This document shows, in pieces, positions 22,315 through 34,068 of a stretch of DNA of 64,000 nt. The translations under genes were made by a program, and so were the position numbers. Positions within the stretch are counted from its first letter, which is position 1, and every line of letters starts with the position of its first letter. The notes under the pieces are model-generated. The model was given only the letters and a program-made list of their open reading frames with translations. It was not told where the DNA came from and made no database searches. Origin of the DNA: Candidatus Bathyarchaeia archaeon (GTDB lineage Archaea; Thermoproteota; Bathyarchaeia; Bathyarchaeales; Bathycorpusculaceae); assembly GCA_049512935.1 (NCBI GenBank), contig JBEKWR010000002.1, positions 116,887 to 180,886 of the forward strand, in the 5' to 3' direction.

Positions 22315-23262
22315 ATGCGAATAAAAAAGACTGTTATCGGAAGCTTTCCCAGATCAAGCAGACCCTTAGCTGTGGCTCTTAAAGAAGTAGTTGACTTGCA
22401 GCTGCATTATGGCGTTGATTTGATTACCGACGGCGAGCAGCGAAGCAACATGATTCAGTACTTTAACCAGATTCCGGGAACCGAAGTAGCGGGCAGCAGC
22501 TTGAGAATCGCTGGAAAAATCAAGCCCTTAAAAGCCGAGTTGTTAGACGAGTTTTACAAAATCAAGGATTACCGAACTATTCAATCAATCCTCAAAAGCA
22601 GGGGGAAAGAGAACACAAAAACGAAAATCACAATTACGGGTCCCATAACCCTTGGCACCATCGTTGCCTCAACAGACATCAACAGCACAGCGGAGCATTA
22701 CAACTTGGACGATGAGGAAACGCTGTTCTCCGACTTCTCCGACGCGCTCCTGCCCATAGTTGAAAAAGCGTTGAGCCTGGGGGCTTACGTGCAGATCGAC
22801 GAGCCCCAACTTTCCACCGGGCAGGTAACCCTTAAGACCGCCAAGAAAATTCTCAAAAATTTTACGTCACGTCTCCCAGCAAACGCCATTAAAGAGGAAA
22901 AAGTCAGCTGCCACGTATGCGGGTCAATAAAAAGCGTGGCTGGACTCTACGATGTGCTGCTGGGTTTGGATATTCCAATTTTAAGCTTTGGCTTCAGCGG
23001 AGACACTGAAAGGGAGAATTTCGACGTTGTTTCCAAGGCTTCGTTGCAGTCGCACGGCAAGAAGCTTGGGGCAGGCTTCATCTCAAACGTAACTGTCGAG
23101 GAAGACCGCGCCGTTTTGGAGAGGCTTAACAGGATCGTGGGGCTTGTGGGAGTAGAAAACATCAGGTACCTTCACCCTGACTGCGGCTTCGGCTTGACGC
23201 GGCTTGAAAAAGTCAAGTTGATCCTGAAGAAAATGCAGAAGATAGGCGACGCCGTCAACTGA
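22315..23262 (+). CDS. Core (C-terminal-only) MetE-like methionine synthase
   Basis: VIGSFPR, TDGEQR, TGPITL, QIDEP, HVCG, PDCGF. Confidence 0.8.
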   Translation: MRIKKTVIGSFPRSSRPLAVALKEVVDLQLHYGVDLITDGEQRSNMIQYFNQIPGTEVAGSSLRIAGKIKPLKAELLDEFYKIKDYRTIQSILKSRGKENTKTKITITGPITLGTIVASTDINSTAEHYNLDDEETLFSDFSDALLPIVEKALSLGAYVQIDEPQLSTGQVTLKTAKKILKNFTSRLPANAIKEEKVSCHVCGSIKSVAGLYDVLLGLDIPILSFGFSGDTERENFDVVSKASLQSHGKKLGAGFISNVTVEEDRAVLERLNRIVGLVGVENIRYLHPDCGFGLTRLEKVKLILKKMQKIGDAVN

Positions 23263-25983: not shown

Positions 25984-26733
25984 TCAGACAACGGTTTTTT
26001 TCAGGACGAAAAATGAAGCTGAGAAGAAAATCAGTCCAAAACCTATAAGCGCTAAAAAAGACAACCATGGAAAAAGCTGTCCCAAAGCAGCCGCCCGTAA
26101 ACATTCGCTTGAATGTGTAAGCGGCAAGCAATAAAGCGCAATCTTTACTGCTTCAGGGACTTGTGTCAGAGAGAAGAAAGTGCCGCATAGAAAAGTCATC
26201 GGCAAGATGACCAAAGTGTTGAAGGTGCTCATGTGTACATGATTATTGAATAATGAAGCGACGAGGACACCGAACAAGGCAAACACAAAACAGGACAAAA
26301 ACAGGGTTAACGCAAAAACGGGACTAACAATTAACGTCGGCAACAGGATAAGCCCAACGACCAGTATAGCGACGGAGCTAATTAAGCCCCGAACTACACC
26401 TATCAATGACTTGCCTATAACCAAGGAATACAGGCTCACCGGCGAAATCAAGAACTCATCAAAGCTCTTGTAAAAAAGCCGATCCACTTGAAGTTTTTGT
26501 GCAGAACCATTAAAACTGGAAGAAAAAGCTGTTAGAGCAACGATTCCTGGAATTACGAACGCAAGATAGCTCACCCCGCCAAAACTAATCCCTCTGCCTA
26601 GTCCATAGCCAAAAGCTACCAGATACAAAAGAGGCTGAATGAGGCTGGTGGCAAGAGTTGAGCGCCAGTGGCGACTTAGGTTCCGTAAATCTACCCACAG
26701 AATGGAATAAATGTCTTTTAAAGAATCTAACAT
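25984..26733 (-). CDS. ABC-2 type permease
   Basis: 6 TM; SYLAFVIPG, FLCGTFF, LPLTH. Confidence 0.88.
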   Translation of the reverse strand: MLDSLKDIYSILWVDLRNLSRHWRSTLATSLIQPLLYLVAFGYGLGRGISFGGVSYLAFVIPGIVALTAFSSSFNGSAQKLQVDRLFYKSFDEFLISPVSLYSLVIGKSLIGVVRGLISSVAILVVGLILLPTLIVSPVFALTLFLSCFVFALFGVLVASLFNNHVHMSTFNTLVILPMTFLCGTFFSLTQVPEAVKIALYCLPLTHSSECLRAAALGQLFPWLSFLALIGFGLIFFSASFFVLKKTVV

Positions 26734-26739
26734 TCAGGG

Positions 26740-27603
26740 TCACACAGCCCTCTCGCCAGTCTGCTCCACAAAAACATCCTCCAAGTTTGAATCACGGATA
26801 ACTATGGATTTGATGTTAGGCGGCAATTTCTCAACATAACATGTAGCTGCGGCTCTATCGGCAAAAAACTGGTAAAGCGTCTCTTTATTGTCTACAAGCG
26901 TCTCAACAACTATTGGCCCCAACTTGTTTCGCAATTCTTGAGGCGTTCCAACAGCAATCAACTTGCCGTGATGCATTATACCGACGCGCCCACATAAAGC
27001 CTCAGCCTCTTCAATGTAATGGGTCGTAAGAAATATCGTGGTACCGTCGGAGTTTAGACGACGAACCAAACTCCAGAGTTTACGCCGAGATTGGGCATCT
27101 AGACCCACGGTTGGTTCATCTAAAAACAGGACTTTAGGTTCATGTAAAAGACTGCAGATTATTGCCGCTCTCTTTTTCATTCCACCTGAAAGCGTATCCA
27201 CCATTTTATCGGCGTACTCTTTGAGTTCAACGTAATCAAGCAGTTCCGCTATGCGGAGCTTGCGATCTGAAGAACTCAAGCGGTGGAGCCGCGCATGAAA
27301 CTCCATGTTTTCGCGCACAGTCAAGTCTCTATCTAAAGTCAGATGCTGCTGCACTACACCAATGATCCGCTTAACTTTGTCGGCGTCTTCTGTGACGTCG
27401 AAACCTCCAACCGATGCGGAACCAGAAGTTGGATGAGTCAATGTGGTCAAGACACGGATGGTTGTGGTTTTGCCTGCTCCGTTAGGTCCTAAAAAACCGA
27501 AAATTTCTCCGCTGTGTACTCTTAAATCGAGGTCATGTACGGCTTGCACGGTACCGTAGTTTTTGTTTAGCTTTTCAGTTACTATCGATTCTTCCATCAA
27601 CAA
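26740..27603 (-). CDS. ABC transporter ATPase (DrrA-like)
   Basis: GPNGAGKTT, LSGGM, LDEPT. Confidence 0.92.
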   Translation of the reverse strand: MLMEESIVTEKLNKNYGTVQAVHDLDLRVHSGEIFGFLGPNGAGKTTTIRVLTTLTHPTSGSASVGGFDVTEDADKVKRIIGVVQQHLTLDRDLTVRENMEFHARLHRLSSSDRKLRIAELLDYVELKEYADKMVDTLSGGMKKRAAIICSLLHEPKVLFLDEPTVGLDAQSRRKLWSLVRRLNSDGTTIFLTTHYIEEAEALCGRVGIMHHGKLIAVGTPQELRNKLGPIVVETLVDNKETLYQFFADRAAATCYVEKLPPNIKSIVIRDSNLEDVFVEQTGERAV

Positions 27604-27614
27604 GAAGTTGCCTT

Positions 27615-28400
27615 CTACTTGTCATGTTTCTCTAAAGCCAAAGTAACCGCACTCTTGGTTGCAAAAGCAATCAACTCGCTCATCTTAGTATGACCGCTAG
27701 TTACATGCAACGGCTTACCCATCTTTCCGGAAACGATAACCATATTATCAGTACCTGTGCCAGTTGCCTGATATCGGGGTGCATAGGTGCTTCTAACATC
27801 CAAATCCTGAAACGCGGCGGTCTTTGCCTCCGTGGCTGTTATTATGGCTCTTGCCATCGCCGCTTCGCTCAAGGTAGCATTGGTTAAAAGGATCAAGTTA
27901 ACAGTGCCAATGGAGCCCACGTGTCCATCCCTCTCCACGTATCTTGTCACATCAACGCCCGCCCGCATCGCATTCTCCTTCGCCCCAGCAGTAGCCAAAC
28001 AGCAAACTTTAAACTCTTCATAGGATTGCTCACAAACAGCCAAGTCATCCATGTCGACTGCAGTGATCAAGAAACTTATTTCCTTCGGGTCTATTCCTAA
28101 GGCCAAAGGCAAATTTCTTTTAAATTCATCAAGGTTTTTCATCATGTAATCTTCCAGTGTGGGAGGCGTGTAGGTGTTGGCAACATAGGGCACCTCATTG
28201 TAACCGTCCAACGTTGAAAGGACACGGCATTTCTCATCAAAGGAGACAAGCAAAGTGTTGACTTTCGACTCTCTGAAGAGGTAGTAAATTATCTTAGCAT
28301 GCATTTTATCCAACGATGTTTTTATTTTTCTTTCGCTTAGTTTTTCGCTGATTTCTTTCATCCCATCCTCTCTCTGCTGATAGCTTGCTTTTTCTTCCAT
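27615..28400 (-). CDS. cbiZ: Adenosylcobinamide amidohydrolase
   Basis: GTVN, ATEAKTAA, ATGTGTD. Confidence 0.85.
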   Translation of the reverse strand: MEEKASYQQREDGMKEISEKLSERKIKTSLDKMHAKIIYYLFRESKVNTLLVSFDEKCRVLSTLDGYNEVPYVANTYTPPTLEDYMMKNLDEFKRNLPLALGIDPKEISFLITAVDMDDLAVCEQSYEEFKVCCLATAGAKENAMRAGVDVTRYVERDGHVGSIGTVNLILLTNATLSEAAMARAIITATEAKTAAFQDLDVRSTYAPRYQATGTGTDNMVIVSGKMGKPLHVTSGHTKMSELIAFATKSAVTLALEKHDK

Positions 28401-28863
28401 TAGCTTGCTTGTACTTAAGTTAAGCTATTTCTATCATGTATTAGAGTTTCAACATGAATCAGCCCACTTGAAGAAATCAGAGTTCGCTGCATTTGAGCGC
28501 TCCCATACCTGGAGCCATTGAAAAACTTGTCAAGATAAAAGCTAGCTTCTGGACTTGCGAACCTAATCAGCTGAGCCATGGTGCAGTGCCTTTTTATTTC
28601 CGAAAAAGGATAAAGCGCGCGCTTAAAACTTTCCCATGGACCTTTTTTCTCATCTTTCGTTTCTGGCTCTGCTCAATATGGCTGTATGGTAAATTACGCG
28701 TTGGTCAGTCGGCAACTGTTGAACGTGACTATTTGTTTGCATTTGAATGGGAAAATTTATGGGAATTGGCTTCTAGTTTCGGGTACGCGTCGGATTGCCC
28801 TATAATTCAGAAAGTTTCTTATAGCGGGTTGGATTATCCACCCTAACATGAGGGGATAATAGG

Positions 28864-29838
28864 ATGGTAAATAGAAACATCATTTACATTGCGACCGTAA
28901 TAATCATCGTAATAATAGTTTCAGGCGCATTCATCTACGCCGATTATAAAACTACAAATCAAAACGGCAAGACAGGCATTACTATAACCGACGACGAAAA
29001 CTACAATACCACTCTGGCTGCTATTCCACAAAGAATTGTGTCATTGGCTCCCAGCTGCACCCAAATTCTATTCGCAATAGGAGAGGGAAGCAAAGTTGTA
29101 GGTGTCACAAGCGCTGACGATTACCCATACAATTTTGCAGCATGGGCGGCGGCTGGCAACATGACAATTGACGGAGACTACGGAAACCCAAACATGGAGG
29201 CTATTGCAGGGCTTCGTCCCGATTTGATAGTTACAGACAGTATTAATGACCCCAAGCTTCCAAGCATGAGAAGCCTTGAATACAACGTGATAGAACTAAA
29301 CCCATCTACAGTCGAAGGAATCTACAAAGATATAGCATTAATGGGGAAAGCGACAGGGGCCACCACTGAGGCGAATACAGTAATCCAAAACTTGACAAGC
29401 ACAATTAATTCGATAGCGACAAAAATCGCTAATGCGCACGTGACTCCGCTGAAGGTCTTTTACGAAGTTTGGACCCCGCCACTTATTACCGCTGGCTATA
29501 CGACCTGGATCAACGATGTCATAAGCAAGGCTGGCGGTGTCAACATCTTCAGTAACTCAAGCGACACCACAGCGTACCCGACAGTTTCCTCTGAAGCCGT
29601 TGTTGCACTCAATCCAGACGCGATATTCCTACCCACAGAAATGGGACAAGCCCCGTTCTATGGAAGCGTCAACGATGTGAAGGCAACGCCAGGGTGGAAT
29701 ACAATCAGTGCAGTGCAAAACAACAAAATCTTCGTCGTCAACGGAGATGTCTTCGCAGAACCTGGCCCCAGAGTTGCTGACTGCGTCTATGCTATCGCAT
29801 CCGACTTGTATCCACAGCTTTTCAATTCCACCTCCTAA
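28864..29838 (+). CDS. btuF: Corrinoid ABC transporter substrate-binding protein
   Basis: PQRIVSLAPS.T.ILFAIG, PGPR. Confidence 0.8.
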   Translation: MVNRNIIYIATVIIIVIIVSGAFIYADYKTTNQNGKTGITITDDENYNTTLAAIPQRIVSLAPSCTQILFAIGEGSKVVGVTSADDYPYNFAAWAAAGNMTIDGDYGNPNMEAIAGLRPDLIVTDSINDPKLPSMRSLEYNVIELNPSTVEGIYKDIALMGKATGATTEANTVIQNLTSTINSIATKIANAHVTPLKVFYEVWTPPLITAGYTTWINDVISKAGGVNIFSNSSDTTAYPTVSSEAVVALNPDAIFLPTEMGQAPFYGSVNDVKATPGWNTISAVQNNKIFVVNGDVFAEPGPRVADCVYAIASDLYPQLFNSTS

Positions 29839-29855
29839 TTTTTTTGTCGTGAAAT

Positions 29856-30932
29856 ATGATGAGTGCAGAGGGTAGCTACGTCAAGCGTTCGTCGCGATGG
29901 AAAGTAATCTTAGCCGCATTAGTGTTAGCTCTCGTTTTGACCTTAATAGTGTCTCTTAACATAGGTTACGCTTCTTACATATCCTTCTCGCAAATCTTGG
30001 CCATATTAGGCAAGCAGATTCCGTTCCTGAGCGGCTCAATAAATTCAGCCTCAATATCGCCATCCGATCAAGCTATAATTTTGCTAATTCGTTTTCCGCG
30101 TGTGCTCGCTGCCGCTTTAGTCGGAGCAGGACTGGCCGCGGCGGGTGTCATTTATCAGGGTGTTTTCAGGAATCCCATGGCTGACTCGTACCTGCTGGGT
30201 GCCTCAGCGGGCGCGTCAGTGGGTTACGCCATCGCTATCTTGTATGTTTCGACTGCCTTTACAATTGTGGGTCTAGGAATAGCGCAGGCTTTCGCGTTTA
30301 TGTTTGCCTTGTTAGCCGTGTTCTTGGTGCTTTTTGTTGCGAGGGTTGGCAATAGAATTCCAGTCACCAACCTGCTACTCACAGGCTTAGTCTTCAACAT
30401 CTTCTTTCTAGCTTTGTTCTCAATTATGGAAGTTCACGCTGGTCACGCTCTCAGCGGGTTAGTTGGTTTTACCCTAGGCGGATTCTCCGACATTGTTTGG
30501 CTGCAGGTCTGGGCTGTATTTCCTTTCGTAATTGCTGGCATAGCCATAACGTTCTTCTTTACCCGCGACCTAAACATGCTCTCCATGGGCGACGAAACCG
30601 CGCAGCATCTGGGGGTGAACACGGAGAAAGTGCGCCAGATGCTGCTCATTATCGCGTCTCTGATGACGGCGGCGTGTGTTGCAATCAGCGGCGTCATAGG
30701 TTTCGTAGGCTTAATTGTTCCCCACATGACCCGGCTGGCTATTGGACCTGACCACAGAATCCTCCTTCCCGCCTCAGCAATCGTCGGAGCCATGTTCTTA
30801 GTGATTTGCGACGCATTTACAAGAGTCGCTACAGGAGCATCTGAGCTGCCTGTCGGGGTCATAACCGCCCTCGTCGGCACGCCGGTCTTCATCTACCTGA
30901 TTAGGAGGAGAAGAACAGCCTATTCGCTTTGA
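29856..30932 (+). CDS. btuC: Corrinoid ABC transporter permease
   Basis: RFPRV, FRNPMAD, IGFVGLIVPH. Confidence 0.82.
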   Translation: MMSAEGSYVKRSSRWKVILAALVLALVLTLIVSLNIGYASYISFSQILAILGKQIPFLSGSINSASISPSDQAIILLIRFPRVLAAALVGAGLAAAGVIYQGVFRNPMADSYLLGASAGASVGYAIAILYVSTAFTIVGLGIAQAFAFMFALLAVFLVLFVARVGNRIPVTNLLLTGLVFNIFFLALFSIMEVHAGHALSGLVGFTLGGFSDIVWLQVWAVFPFVIAGIAITFFFTRDLNMLSMGDETAQHLGVNTEKVRQMLLIIASLMTAACVAISGVIGFVGLIVPHMTRLAIGPDHRILLPASAIVGAMFLVICDAFTRVATGASELPVGVITALVGTPVFIYLIRRRRTAYSL

Positions 30933-32302
30933 GGAGACAGAAAAACATGGTTTCACTGAATATCGATGGGGTCGAATGCCGTTACGGCTCAATCAAAATC
31001 TTAGAGGACGTGAGCCTATCGGTGAAGGCAGGTGACTTCGTGGGGATTTTGGGACCCAACGGCTCCGGCAAAACCACGCTTCTTAGAAGCATAAGCCGAA
31101 CGCTCAAACCGTATAAGGGCGCTATCATGCTAAACGACAAGGACCTTTACTCTCTTAAAAACATAGAAGTGGCAAAGCAGATGGCTGTGGTTCCACAGGA
31201 CAACTCAATCAGTTTCAGCTTCACCGCGTTGGAGGTTGTTTTGATGGGGCGCAATCCGCACATGGAGCGGTTCCAGATGGAAACTGAAAAGGACATGGCT
31301 ATCGCCCGAAAAGTCATGAATTTGACAAATACGTGGCATCTGGCATCGAGACCTGTGAACGAACTCAGCGGCGGAGAGCGGCAACGTGTAATTATTGCCC
31401 GGGCCTTGGCGCAGGAACCTAAAGTTCTGCTCTTGGACGAGCCCCTCACATACCTCGATATCATCAACCAGTTAGAAGTCATGGATTTAATCAAGTCGCT
31501 CTGCGTGGCTGATGGAATAATAGCCATGGCTGTCGTCCATGACCTTAATCTTGCAGCTCGATACTGCAACAACGCTTTACTTCTTAAAAACGGGAAAGTC
31601 TACGCCGCGGGAACTATAGATACGGTGTTGACTAGCGAAAACATAAAAAACGTCTTCAGAGTAGACGCTTTAGTGAGGAAAAACGCTGTCACCAACTCCC
31701 TCTATGTCACCCCGCTGTCACCTCAGAAAGCTTCGACTCCGAGAAACTGTTCAATTCACATAGTCAGCGGGGCAGGAACAGGAACCGTGCTGATGAAGGC
31801 TCTCCAAGAAGAAGGCTACACCATAACAGCCGGCGTTCTTAACGTTTTAGACACCGACTTCGAAACCGCGGAATTTCTGAATATACCCGTAGTTAGTGAA
31901 GCGCCATTTTCCCCAATAACCGAAAAAAGCTGCATGGCAAACTTTGACATGATGACCAAGGCAGGATTTATCGTCATAACCTCGGTTCCATTCGGCTACG
32001 GAAACCTTTCCAATCTGGAATCGGCGCTTGCAGCTGTCAAACTGGGAGTCCAAACCTACGTTATCGAAGAAGAACCTATAGAAAACCGCGACTTCACAAG
32101 CGGCAAAGCAGCAGCCTTAATGGAAGAGCTGAGGAAACATGGTGCCGTCTTCATCAAACATGCCTCCGAGCTGCCGACGCTGGTCAACGCAAACCATGAT
32201 TTGATGGAACTGCAGAAAAACGGGCAGAAAGAAATTCCAGGTCACACAAAAAACGTCACCAAAGAAATTATACAACCTACAAAATGTAAGGAGCAAACCT
32301 GA
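30929..32302 (+). CDS. btuD: Corrinoid ABC transporter ATPase with C-terminal extension
   Basis: GPNGSGKTT, LSGGERQR, HDLNLAA. Confidence 0.82.
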   Translation: MRRQKNMVSLNIDGVECRYGSIKILEDVSLSVKAGDFVGILGPNGSGKTTLLRSISRTLKPYKGAIMLNDKDLYSLKNIEVAKQMAVVPQDNSISFSFTALEVVLMGRNPHMERFQMETEKDMAIARKVMNLTNTWHLASRPVNELSGGERQRVIIARALAQEPKVLLLDEPLTYLDIINQLEVMDLIKSLCVADGIIAMAVVHDLNLAARYCNNALLLKNGKVYAAGTIDTVLTSENIKNVFRVDALVRKNAVTNSLYVTPLSPQKASTPRNCSIHIVSGAGTGTVLMKALQEEGYTITAGVLNVLDTDFETAEFLNIPVVSEAPFSPITEKSCMANFDMMTKAGFIVITSVPFGYGNLSNLESALAAVKLGVQTYVIEEEPIENRDFTSGKAAALMEELRKHGAVFIKHASELPTLVNANHDLMELQKNGQKEIPGHTKNVTKEIIQPTKCKEQT

Positions 32303-33412
32303 GTGCCCTCAAAAACAAACCCTGAGCTAACATTTGGCGTGGAGAAACACGGCAGAAGGCTGGATCATTTCATCTGGTCATGCACAAGGGCTTACCCTGT
32401 TAAGCACGCTTTTTCTCTCGGCGACGGAAAACCATTACCGAACGAGTTGACAACTGCGGAAGCTAAGGTTATGCTTAAGAAAGTGGCGGATTTCGGAGCC
32501 GACAACCTGTTCATTTCCGGCGCTGGCTGGACTGGAGAACCTCTGATGCGTAAAGATTTCTTGGAGCTGATTCGTTATGTCGCAGAGTTGGAGCTGGCGC
32601 CTTACGTGAAGGTCACTGGCTGGCATTTCAATCGCAAAGTCGCGGAGGAGTTGGCTGAGGCGAAATGCAAAGCTATAGTTTGCTTCGCGGGGCTCAAGGA
32701 AACTGATGCTAAACTGCGTGGGGAAGATGCGTTTGATGAAAGCTTAGCCGCGGCGAAATTGTGTAAAGAGTTCGGAATTCCTTTTGCTGTAAGCGTCATA
32801 AACACAAAGTACGTTGCCAACCAAGTTTCTGCTTTAGTCGAGTTTGCCATTGATTTAGGCGCTCGCAGTTTCCATTTGGCTTCACTGATTCCTCAGCCTA
32901 TAGACGTTGAGAACCAGCTTAAGGTGCTTGGTCCGCTCGAGTCTACACCCCAGGAAAAGGAAACTCAGCTCGAAGAAATTTATGAACTAAACAAAAAAGT
33001 AAGAGATAGAATCCTTATAGTTCCTTACGAAATGTTCAATAACCGTCTTTTGAAAACGAAGGAACCGCAAAGAGAATTGCGCAGCACCTGCAGCATGTGC
33101 GACAACCTGGTCAAAAACGAGTGGCTGGAGATTTTAGAGGACGGAAAAGCATACGCTTGCGCCCCTCTCGGCTTAGAGTTTGGCGACATAAGAACAGACA
33201 GCATTCAACAAATCATGGATCGCATGCGTGTATCCGACAAAATTAAGACGCTGGCAGACCGATCCAACCTCAAAGGCAAATGCGGCATCTGCCAATTCAA
33301 AACTATCTGTGGCGGCTGCCGAGCCCGAGCTTACATCTACTCGAAAGACCCGTTAAACCAGGACCCGGCGTGCGTTTATCAGCCGAAAAAAGCAACGTTC
33401 GAGGGCAACTGA
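32303..33412 (+). CDS. Radical-SAM/SPASM-like protein lacking CxxxCxxC
   Basis: WSCTRAYPVKH where the cluster motif should be; ELTT.EA, GEPL; SPASM CGIC...CGGCRARA...DPAC. Confidence 0.75.
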   Translation: MPSKTNPELTFGVEKHGRRLDHFIWSCTRAYPVKHAFSLGDGKPLPNELTTAEAKVMLKKVADFGADNLFISGAGWTGEPLMRKDFLELIRYVAELELAPYVKVTGWHFNRKVAEELAEAKCKAIVCFAGLKETDAKLRGEDAFDESLAAAKLCKEFGIPFAVSVINTKYVANQVSALVEFAIDLGARSFHLASLIPQPIDVENQLKVLGPLESTPQEKETQLEEIYELNKKVRDRILIVPYEMFNNRLLKTKEPQRELRSTCSMCDNLVKNEWLEILEDGKAYACAPLGLEFGDIRTDSIQQIMDRMRVSDKIKTLADRSNLKGKCGICQFKTICGGCRARAYIYSKDPLNQDPACVYQPKKATFEGN

Positions 33413-33435
33413 ATTTCGCTAAGTAGGTCAGAACA

Positions 33436-34068
33436 ATGACACAAGATGAAAACAGAAAATCGCTTGAGTTCCTAAGAAACCGAGCGTTAGATTTAGGCGC
33501 CGTTGACGCAAAAATAATTCCCGCCGAAAAAATCGTGGTAGCAGACCGCGTTGTTTTCAAATGCCGTCTGGGCTGCGAAAAATATGGAAAAACATTGGCT
33601 TGCCCCCCTTACGCGCCGACCCCCAGTGAGTTTCGAAAAATCGTCAGTGAATACCACCACGCGTTGTTCATGAAATTCAACTCGCATGCTGAAGGCAATT
33701 CAGAACTCATAAAATACCTTGCAAAAGCCGATGACCCGTCTGTTCCCCCAGAGATGAAGGCGAAAGTGGAAGTTTTCTGGTCCGCATGGAAAGATGACAT
33801 GAAACATTTGCTTGAAACAGTTTTAGAACTCGAAAAAGCAGCGGCTGAAAAAGGGTATCTTCTTGCCGTAGGATTAGTTTCAGGATCATGTCAACTATGC
33901 GAAAAATGCAACGTTCAGAATGGGATATGCGTGCATCCCGCTAAGAGACGATTCTCCGAAGAGGGAGTGGGAGTCGACGTGAAGGCAACTGCCGAAAACG
34001 CTGGCGTAAAATTTACTTTGCCTTTCAATAAAAACCCTGAAACCTTTGCCCTGCTCTTGATAGATTAG
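33436..34068 (+). CDS. DUF2284-type predicted metal-binding protein
   Basis: KC..GC..YG...ACPP, GSC.LC..C.....C.HP...R.S.EG.GVDV. Confidence 0.8.
   Translation: MTQDENRKSLEFLRNRALDLGAVDAKIIPAEKIVVADRVVFKCRLGCEKYGKTLACPPYAPTPSEFRKIVSEYHHALFMKFNSHAEGNSELIKYLAKADDPSVPPEMKAKVEVFWSAWKDDMKHLLETVLELEKAAAEKGYLLAVGLVSGSCQLCEKCNVQNGICVHPAKRRFSEEGVGVDVKATAENAGVKFTLPFNKNPETFALLLID

Follow-up and report, generated by a model that had tools for sequence, protein, structure and literature searches.

We describe a gene in a 64,000-nucleotide stretch of a Candidatus Bathyarchaeia archaeon genome (the window; GCA_049512935.1, contig JBEKWR010000002.1, positions 116,887 to 180,886) whose product resembles an enzyme of the radical S-adenosylmethionine (SAM) type with a SPASM domain and has lost the CxxxCxxC cysteine triad. 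This pseudo-radical-SAM/SPASM protein, psSAM (32303-33412, plus strand; 369 amino acids, soluble), is a real, conserved accessory of vitamin B12 import and is apparently undescribed. Its gene starts with GTG, abuts the stop codon of a btuD-like gene with a gap of 0 bases and forms one open frame, and its product has no long hydrophobic stretch.

Conserved loss of the cluster motif

We aligned the best 120 of 361 psSAM homologs (52-100% identity), and none of the 108 that cover the cluster loop has a CxxxCxxC triad. Alignment to the intact sister protein P0245 places the triad positions at Y31, H35 and S38, in a remodelled loop (32393-32416, plus strand) that keeps the aromatic F37. An earlier, sequence-only reading of this locus had seen SCTRAYPVKH in place of CxxxCxxC; the replacement is present in the translation and the triad is lost, with the register off, since the lost cysteines correspond to Y31, H35 and S38 and not to C27, an upstream cysteine that intact relatives also carry. 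Column counts over 125 rows of the psSAM family give Y at position 31 in 100/113 rows, S at position 38 in 111/116, and H, Y or F at position 35 in 71, 29 and 6 of 116 rows, respectively (H or Y in 100/116). A profile search of 1.84 billion representative sequences recovered further triad-less members down to 37% identity and, among them, one intact protein, P0245 (MBI2877318.1, named Ca. Tectomicrobia; E 2e-98, 41% identity to psSAM). The expansion of GGEP to GAGWTGEP (32519-32542, plus strand; G78-E79-P80 kept), also noticed in the sequence-only reading, is likewise present in the translation and proves lineage-specific; in distant members the sequence is GGEP or has other short insertions, and across the psSAM rows the loop ahead of GE is extended by insertions that differ in length.

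With frameshifted copies left out, the ratio of nonsynonymous to synonymous substitution rates (dN/dS) of psSAM against the window gene is 0.03-0.07 in the 5 of 11 pairs with unsaturated dS, and that of btuC is ~0.075. Averaged over 66 pairs, nonsynonymous divergence (pN) comes to 0.053 in residues 20-47, to 0.118 in the barrel and to 0.113 in the SPASM domain; with the lowest value, the rebuilt loop is therefore the most constrained part of psSAM. As judged from these alignments, the triad loss is more than chance; it is conserved and under purifying selection, not decay. The sequence-only reading had asked whether the motif loss is conserved, by dN/dS, and had counted close homologs with an intact CxxxCxxC, or an absence of btu linkage, against itself. 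We found the loss conserved, no intact motif among the close homologs, and linkage to btu genes as described below.

Retained barrel, SAM pocket and SPASM domain

psSAM scores 28.2 bits against the Pfam Radical_SAM model, just under the cut-off of 29.5. Its structure model (predicted local distance difference test, pLDDT, 92.9) matches SuiB, SkfB, anSME and PqqE at Z 23-26, the first three of them at Z 24-26, and a search of the ESM Atlas with psSAM returned generic radical-SAM clusters only. In SkfB, SAM is contacted by the GGE motif, Ser211, Arg223 and Phe123 (PMC6231123). Carried to psSAM numbering through alignments, these contacts fall on G78-E79 (E in 118 and D in 5 of 123 rows), position 127 (C, S or T in 119/125), R139 (125/125) and the aromatic F/Y37 (116/116); the Asp after the ribose Ser is replaced by Ala in 111/125 rows. 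psSAM has the partial TIM-barrel core and the SAM-binding motifs of radical SAM enzymes and lacks their CxxxCxxC. Seven pocket residues (Y101, K103, I125, S164, Q198, W274 and E276) are common to the psSAM family and intact P0245 and rare in 75 other intact proteins, and this pattern suggests that psSAM still uses the ligand pocket it inherited.

The SPASM domain (C263-C357; 33089-33373, plus strand; PF13186 at its cut-off), with ligands for two predicted auxiliary Fe-S clusters, has kept its cysteines, as the sequence-only reading held: C263, C286, C327, C330, C336, C339 and C357 are present in 116-119 of 116-120 rows, and C266, present in 114/120, is replaced in some distant members. psSAM has the seven or eight cysteines expected of a SPASM domain with both AuxI and AuxII; Pfam finds no B12-binding domain in it.

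psSAM genes are linked to corrinoid-type transporters

In the window, psSAM belongs to a plus-strand row, btuF-btuC-btuD-psSAM-DUF2284, with gaps of 17, -4, 0 and 23 bases. The row opens with a BtuF-like, putatively corrinoid-binding protein with an N-terminal membrane anchor (28864-29838; PF01497, 112 bits; hydrophobic stretch at residue 6), which reaches 81 bits against the NCBIfam BtuF model (cut-off 234), a model that ranks second to a generic one. The BtuC-like permease (29856-30932; PF01032) and the BtuD-like ATPase (30929-32302; true start likely the ATG at 30947) have as best NCBIfam matches PRK09535, vitamin B12 permease (276/461 bits), and PRK09536, corrinoid ABC ATPase (340/537 bits). 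All btu-type transporter genes score below the model cut-offs, so the btu names rest on context as well; heme and siderophore models score too.

We compared 40 loci of the psSAM family (29 from genome contigs, that of genome G395 and 10 metagenomic), about 20 of which are close kin and count as few events. btuF is present in 35/40, btuC in 34/40 and either in 36/40, or 34/38 after two near-duplicates are dropped; the loci lacking them are L032 and L105, both beside a lone cbiE-like gene, and L109 and L112, on contigs of 2.0 and 1.6 kb. DUF2284 occurs in 27/40 loci, cbiZ in 24/40, a NicO-like membrane protein in 16/40, DUF71 and a HutW/ChuW-like radical SAM in 4/40 each, and cobS in 3/40, with cobY, cobU, cobT, cbiB, cobD, cobA, cobN, cbiE and a cobB-like gene as further neighbours. 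psSAM is separated from the btu gene upstream of it by -4 to +2 bases in 16 of the 19 loci measured.

In Bathyarchaeia psSAM abuts btuD; distant lineages (L100, L102, L103, L104) have it placed between btuF and btuC. L102 is a bacterial-type operon, cobC-cobU-cobT-cobS-cbiB-cobD-asnB-like-DUF71-btuF-psSAM-btuC-btuD-cobA-TonB receptor. L100 reads cobN-chlID-btuF-psSAM-activase-like radical SAM-134-amino-acid radical-SAM fragment-btuC-btuD, and its psSAM matches the N-terminus of P0119 (named Nezhaarchaeales). Because these positions differ between Bathyarchaeia and distant lineages, the link of psSAM is to the transporter and has survived rearrangement. The transporter is the constant partner of psSAM, and DUF2284 and cbiZ are lineage-specific partners. 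The linkage expected by the sequence-only reading therefore stands for btuF and btuC, distant lineages included, and is confined to particular lineages for cbiZ; DUF2284, its proposed partner, does accompany psSAM in many loci without being constant.

A lone CbiE-like methyltransferase lies beside psSAM in three loci (L030:6244-6954, L032:9144-9806, L105:1-234), with no de novo cbi operon around it in the sequence covered.

Distribution and phylogeny

psSAM occurs in 2 of 251 genomes of the class and 3 of 401 of the phylum (host genome included) and was not found in 401 Chloroflexota genomes; of 91 genomes from the order, 35 have a BtuC homolog. A quick maximum-likelihood tree of 102 proteins (midpoint root; Shimodaira-Hasegawa-like approximate likelihood-ratio, SH-aLRT, support only) places the 24 psSAM-family rows in one clade (96) that is sister to P0245 (100). 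Both lie inside a clade (98) with intact Bathyarchaeia 'WRCT'-type proteins, of which the host genome has three paralogs and which also occur in G593, G594 and G596. Two genomes labelled Nanoarchaeia and Limnocylindrales have paralog sets like the host's and, on that ground, are probably Bathyarchaeia.

The sequence-only reading had called psSAM AhbC/D/NirJ-like, a label that did not hold up beyond the best named match. We rejected membership in these families at 134.7/500 bits for AhbD, 131.2/500 for NirJ2 and 81.4/650 for AhbC; the best AhbD-scoring sequences (380-460/500 bits) form a separate clade (98) that excludes psSAM, in a tree that holds no curated AhbD sequence. Membership in TIGR04347 was also rejected, at 90.2 bits against a cut-off of 525, with intact paralogs scoring higher.

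We sampled 20 btu loci from genomes in which psSAM was not found, and the slot behind btuD holds DUF71-cobT-cobS-cobY in 7, a CbiM cobalt transporter in 2 and nothing informative in 2. One Bathyarchaeia genus carries one or two intact 'WRCT'-type genes directly after DUF71-btuFCD (L212-L214, L216-L221; e.g. L218:8506-9594). A second undescribed btu-embedded radical SAM, activase-like, of ~250 amino acids, with an intact triad and no SPASM domain, occurs in 22/201 genomes of the phylum and has btuF/C/D-like neighbours in 9/20 loci (L249-L268; e.g. L251:1501-2262, L254:1438-2190, L100:10098-10916).

Predicted fold and context of DUF2284

The gene behind psSAM (33436-34068, plus strand) encodes a DUF2284 protein of 210 amino acids (PF10050, 152 bits, cut-off 25), seven cysteines of which are invariant in 58 rows. 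Its model (pLDDT 91.7) has a predicted nitroreductase-type fold, as have nearly all 50 rows of a wide structure search. Foldseek with this model gave no match at E 0.001; its top rows (E 0.018-0.07) comprise nitroreductases as well as QueG (E 0.025, probability 0.94) and RdhA (E 0.074, 0.96). Among these candidates QueG leads at Z 8.1, with a root-mean-square deviation of 4.9 over 154 aligned residues and chain 2-175, the whole B12 domain, covered; RdhA (Z 7.6) and MMACHC (Z 6.9) follow, all in a middling Z range. The alignment with QueG starts from QueG residue 2, so that the two proteins begin together, and those with flavin mononucleotide (FMN) enzymes only from residue ~17-45 of these, DUF2284 having no N-terminal arm of the FMN-enzyme kind. 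An RRSxR-like N-terminal motif, typical of FMN enzymes, is present in 0/58 DUF2284 rows. RdhA, QueG and CblC have been grouped as binding cobalamin without upper and lower ligand (PMC8123684). Together, the models weakly suggest that the DUF2284 fold is closest to the B12 domains of QueG and the reductive dehalogenases. Sequence searches of DUF2284 against solved structures gave no usable match, the ESM Atlas held none outside its own family, and in the open-access literature DUF2284 appears only in tables of two works.

The DUF2284 family is found in 47/151 genomes of the phylum. Among 20 wider loci (three overlap a set of 29 considered below), two have a btuFCD-like operon in their vicinity and one adjoins DUF1638, and in two genomes of another family of the phylum DUF2284 stands beside a corrinoid protein and a URO-D-type methyltransferase (L229:1750-4661, L231:2047-4545). 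A B12 role for the DUF2284 family as a whole is uncertain and may not hold.

Another DUF2284 of the host, 55% identical, has a HutW/ChuW-like radical SAM nearby (G000:C10:32748-36158), and an 81% ortholog of that radical SAM is divergent from btuF in L011 (L011:2987-4270).

B12 economy of the host

The host genome (2.3 Mb, 93% complete) encodes 11 B12-binding domains, most of them in frames of 450-500 amino acids like those of B12 radical SAMs, together with RACo, two cobS, two cobY, cbiB, cobD, DUF71 and a second cbiZ. We found no match in it for cobN, cbiE, CobA, PduO or NrdJ. This gene content suggests a scavenger whose enzymes want a corrinoid without the adenosyl group. CobA is present in 0/22 genomes that have both psSAM and DUF2284, and PduO in 1/47 genomes, G395, which has CobA as well. 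The four genomes with CobA and psSAM have no DUF2284 in the psSAM locus, one of these loci being cut by a contig end. We treat the joint pattern of CobA, psSAM and DUF2284 as a lead.

Several radical SAMs that depend on B12 share an island of the host genome (G000:C13:1-57500; L223-L225) with a Tes-like radical SAM, UbiA and glycosyltransferases, along with cobS, cobY, cbiB, cobD, three copies of DUF71, a pair of WRCT radical SAMs, and a corrinoid protein accompanied by an MtrH-like gene; a homologous island in G596 (L228) has the psSAM operon next to it. The host also encodes a QueG/RdhA-like B12 and Fe-S protein of 304 amino acids, below both cut-offs and in an uncharacterised archaeal branch (L187:1324-2235; G000:C6:69486-70400).

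Proposed function and alternatives

The cargo of the transporter is in all likelihood a corrinoid, and psSAM very likely does no radical-SAM chemistry of its own; that psSAM acts on or carries the imported corrinoid is probable. Our working proposal, tentative and held at somewhat less than an even chance, is that psSAM works as an Fe-S reductant, acting on cobalt and in the removal of the upper ligand, with DUF2284 serving as a B12-holding partner in this branch. The transporter would import corrinoids, and soluble psSAM, binding two auxiliary SPASM clusters, would receive them behind the importer. Its emptied cluster site and kept adenine, ribose and carboxylate pocket would hold the adenosyl or upper face of the corrinoid, or SAM, and its clusters would reduce Co(III)/Co(II), allowing the upper ligand to leave. 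In the Bathyarchaeia branch, with no CobA or PduO and many B12-dependent radical SAMs, DUF2284 would be a base-off corrinoid-binding, CblC-like partner that holds the cofactor during the stripping of cyano, methyl or adenosyl groups, and the stripped corrinoid would then pass to CbiZ, CbiB, CobY and CobS or to apo-enzymes. In favour of this proposal speak the conserved and selected triad loss, the close btu linkage, the retained SAM-pocket, barrel-pocket and SPASM residues, the match of the DUF2284 model to QueG, RdhA and MMACHC, the two loci with DUF2284 beside a corrinoid protein, and the B12 gene content of the host together with the lack of CobA in the 22 genomes that have psSAM and DUF2284. 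A bolder version, in which the corrin cobalt replaces the lost cluster, the SAM pocket grips the adenosyl group of adenosylcobalamin (AdoCbl), the SPASM clusters cleave the Co-C bond reductively and DUF2284 is the Fe-S counterpart of CblC, we consider unlikely.

Several observations weigh against the reductant proposal. No invariant His or Cys that could serve as a cobalt ligand takes the place of the triad. The distribution given above, with psSAM in so few genomes and BtuC in many, means that import is independent of psSAM, which is an accessory of it. In 9 of the 20 psSAM-less loci, all of one genus, an intact radical-SAM/SPASM gene lies directly behind btuD; btu genes are present in 0/99 loci of intact relatives, a control that is incomplete given this nine-locus result and with only 46 loci of at least 10 kb. 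For DUF2284, the wide search ties an FMN nitroreductase, RdhA and QueG at Z 7.6, 7.5 and 7.4, comparison with QueG-like profiles is not significant (hhalign probability 0.4 and 2.9%), 0/29 other DUF2284 loci have a btu neighbour within 1.5 kb on each side, and the family is missing from the distant psSAM operons. CobA occurs in 4 of the 27 psSAM genomes searched and also in L102, and in 8/20 btu genomes without psSAM, a pattern confounded with lineage and with gaps in metagenome-assembled genomes (MAGs).

psSAM could also be a non-redox carrier, chaperone or sensor of corrinoids coupled to BtuCD, HemW-like, with SPASM clusters that are structural or redox-sensing. The transporter is its constant partner and is tightly coupled to it, the retained pocket is under strong selection, and HemW itself, a heme chaperone of radical-SAM fold, is a precedent (PMC10114771). 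We find this doubtful: transfer by HemW needs the intact SAM cluster that psSAM lacks (PMC10114771), two costly clusters with invariant ligands would suit electron transfer better, and most btu operons have no psSAM gene. A further model casts psSAM as a subunit without catalysis of its own in a heteromeric radical-SAM enzyme; the intact partner, activase-like or WRCT, would modify corrin side chains or the lower ligand. Bacteroidales pseudo-rSAMs have been proposed to partner an active radical SAM (PMC10352776), psSAM is followed in L100/L106 and L112 by a ~250-amino-acid radical SAM that keeps its triad but lacks a SPASM domain, and both the btu-like neighbours of the activase-like family (9/20 loci) and the WRCT paralogs of the host, G593, G594 and G596 fit such a pairing. 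It is nevertheless distinctly unlikely, as neither G000 nor G076 yielded the activase-like protein, which is in only 3/40 psSAM loci, WRCT paralogs occur in many genomes without psSAM, and 17 kb of L102 hold no second radical SAM.

Cobalamin might instead stand in for the lost cluster, with AdoCbl as radical source or with SAM and SPASM electrons used to methylate or adenosylate cob(I)alamin. The kept SAM pocket without cluster ligands, the substrate-pocket residues common to psSAM and the intact enzyme, and the lack of CobA in all 22 genomes with psSAM and DUF2284 are in line with this. We judge it quite improbable, given psSAM beside CobA in L102 and together with it in 4/27 genomes, CobA plus PduO in G395, no NrdJ demand for AdoCbl in the host genome and no B12-binding domain in psSAM; the related idea of psSAM as an adenosyltransferase substitute is weakened by the same co-occurrence with CobA. 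Import of a different metal chelate or tetrapyrrole (heme, siroheme, F430-like), which psSAM would then handle, is very improbable. In its favour, none of the btu names reaches its cut-off and models for heme and siderophores score as well, 4/40 psSAM loci have a HutW/ChuW-like radical SAM nearby, and the best named matches of psSAM, AhbD and NirJ, act on iron tetrapyrroles; against this, corrinoid genes are neighbours in many independent arrangements and the best transporter matches are corrinoid models. Least credible, with next to no chance in our view, is a decaying or hitch-hiking radical-SAM gene without function in the operon. The patchy distribution and the frameshifts of several MAG copies speak for it, yet psSAM dN/dS (~0.05) is below that of btuC (~0.075) and the same replacements are conserved down to ~37-55% identity. 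Because btuF, btuC, btuD and cbiZ are frameshifted in the same assemblies, the MAG frameshifts point to sequencing error, and we rejected decay on the conservation of triad loss, dN/dS and the column counts.

Comparison with known systems

Corrinoid import and nucleotide-loop salvage are already well described. The archaeal uptake and salvage system (BtuFCD, CbiZ, CbiB, CobY, CobS, DUF71-B12; PMC3541065, PMC11697101) has the same transporter type and salvage neighbours as our locus, and BtuFCD beside CbiZ has been noted in Bathy-6 genomes (PMC11697101). These accounts, in the portions of their text available to us, name no cluster-less radical-SAM or DUF2284 component (PMC3541065, PMC11697101). 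In 18/20 other btu loci, the slot of psSAM and DUF2284 is held by DUF71-cobT-cobS-cobY, CbiM or an intact radical SAM. We found no description of psSAM in the open-access literature searched, although a locus of this kind may be depicted in Fig. S10 of PMC11697101, and in the same literature no paper on a cluster-less or pseudoenzyme SPASM protein or on a radical SAM/SPASM protein with BtuF, and pseudo-rSAMs only in Bacteroidales peptide work.

Proteins that curators have named 'pseudo' share the radical-SAM-like fold, namely TIGR04347 of Halobacteria, a pseudo-SAM/SPASM family whose name includes SPASM, and IPR026418 of Bacteroidales (PMC10352776); unlike them, psSAM has its own intact sister and a context of B12 import and not peptide maturation. 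AhbC, AhbD and NirJ (PMC10114771) share with psSAM the fold, the SPASM cysteine spacing and the best named profile matches, whereas psSAM has no SAM cluster and AhbD and NirJ scores far below cut-off. HemW/RSAD1 puts a radical-SAM fold in the service of tetrapyrrole trafficking; it is HemN-like, depends on a SAM cluster that it has kept and carries no SPASM domain, and psSAM is the reverse (PMC10114771).

The predicted fold of DUF2284 is of the nitroreductase type, as is that of the B12-binding domain of CblC/MMACHC, BtuM, QueG and RdhA, among which CblC and BtuM strip upper ligands from incoming B12 (PMC8123684). DUF2284 differs in having seven cysteines inserted in the domain, as opposed to a C-terminal ferredoxin, and in having no sequence-level match to CblC, BtuM, QueG or RdhA. 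The prokaryotic proteins known to take over B12 behind a transporter and to reset its upper ligand or the redox state of its cobalt are few, BtuM being an example (PMC8123684). psSAM and DUF2284 are two small soluble candidates for such reception: one is a radical-SAM barrel kept under strong selection after loss of its defining cluster, and for the other, an unstudied family, the fold provides a candidate role. Bathyarchaeia depend heavily on B12-dependent radical-SAM enzymes (PMC11697101), and the activation of scavenged B12 bears on their ecology.

Other features of the locus

Divergent from btuF, across a 463-base gap, a minus-strand row encodes a short-form CbiZ adenosylcobinamide amidohydrolase (27615-28400; PF01955, 162 bits), an ABC ATPase (26740-27603) and, behind it, an ABC-2 permease (25984-26733), the last two named from library matches; the gaps are 11 and 6 bases. 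A gene with a single MetE catalytic domain (core-MetE, 22315-23262; best match PRK00957, below cut-off) is also nearby and neighbours a tRNA gene and a ThiI-like gene. The sequence-only reading had placed all of these genes, as well as btuFCD, psSAM and DUF2284, correctly. Homologs of the ABC-2 permease and core-MetE, which it had listed with the locus, occur in 1/40 and 0/40 psSAM loci, and we rejected them as parts of the conserved unit.

A scan of the window with Rfam matched two tRNAs and no riboswitch, and promoter and terminator predictions, made with a sigma-70 model unsuited to archaea, were at chance level. In one metatranscriptome (0.07 share of words), two ~210-base contigs are identical to the locus, one at cbiZ and one at the btuF-btuC junction, and contigs of relatives span psSAM and DUF2284; such contigs cannot show transcription.

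The BtuD-like ATPase has a C-terminal extension of ~190 amino acids (window 31700-32299) with no Pfam match, which is missing from the 265-amino-acid BtuD of L102. An unannotated family of ~265-300 amino acids with no clear Pfam match flanks cbiZ in the host genome and G221 and, in L251 and L252, has btuF on one side and the activase-like gene on the other (L227:7190-12223; L251:605-1396; G000:C1:218079-221333).

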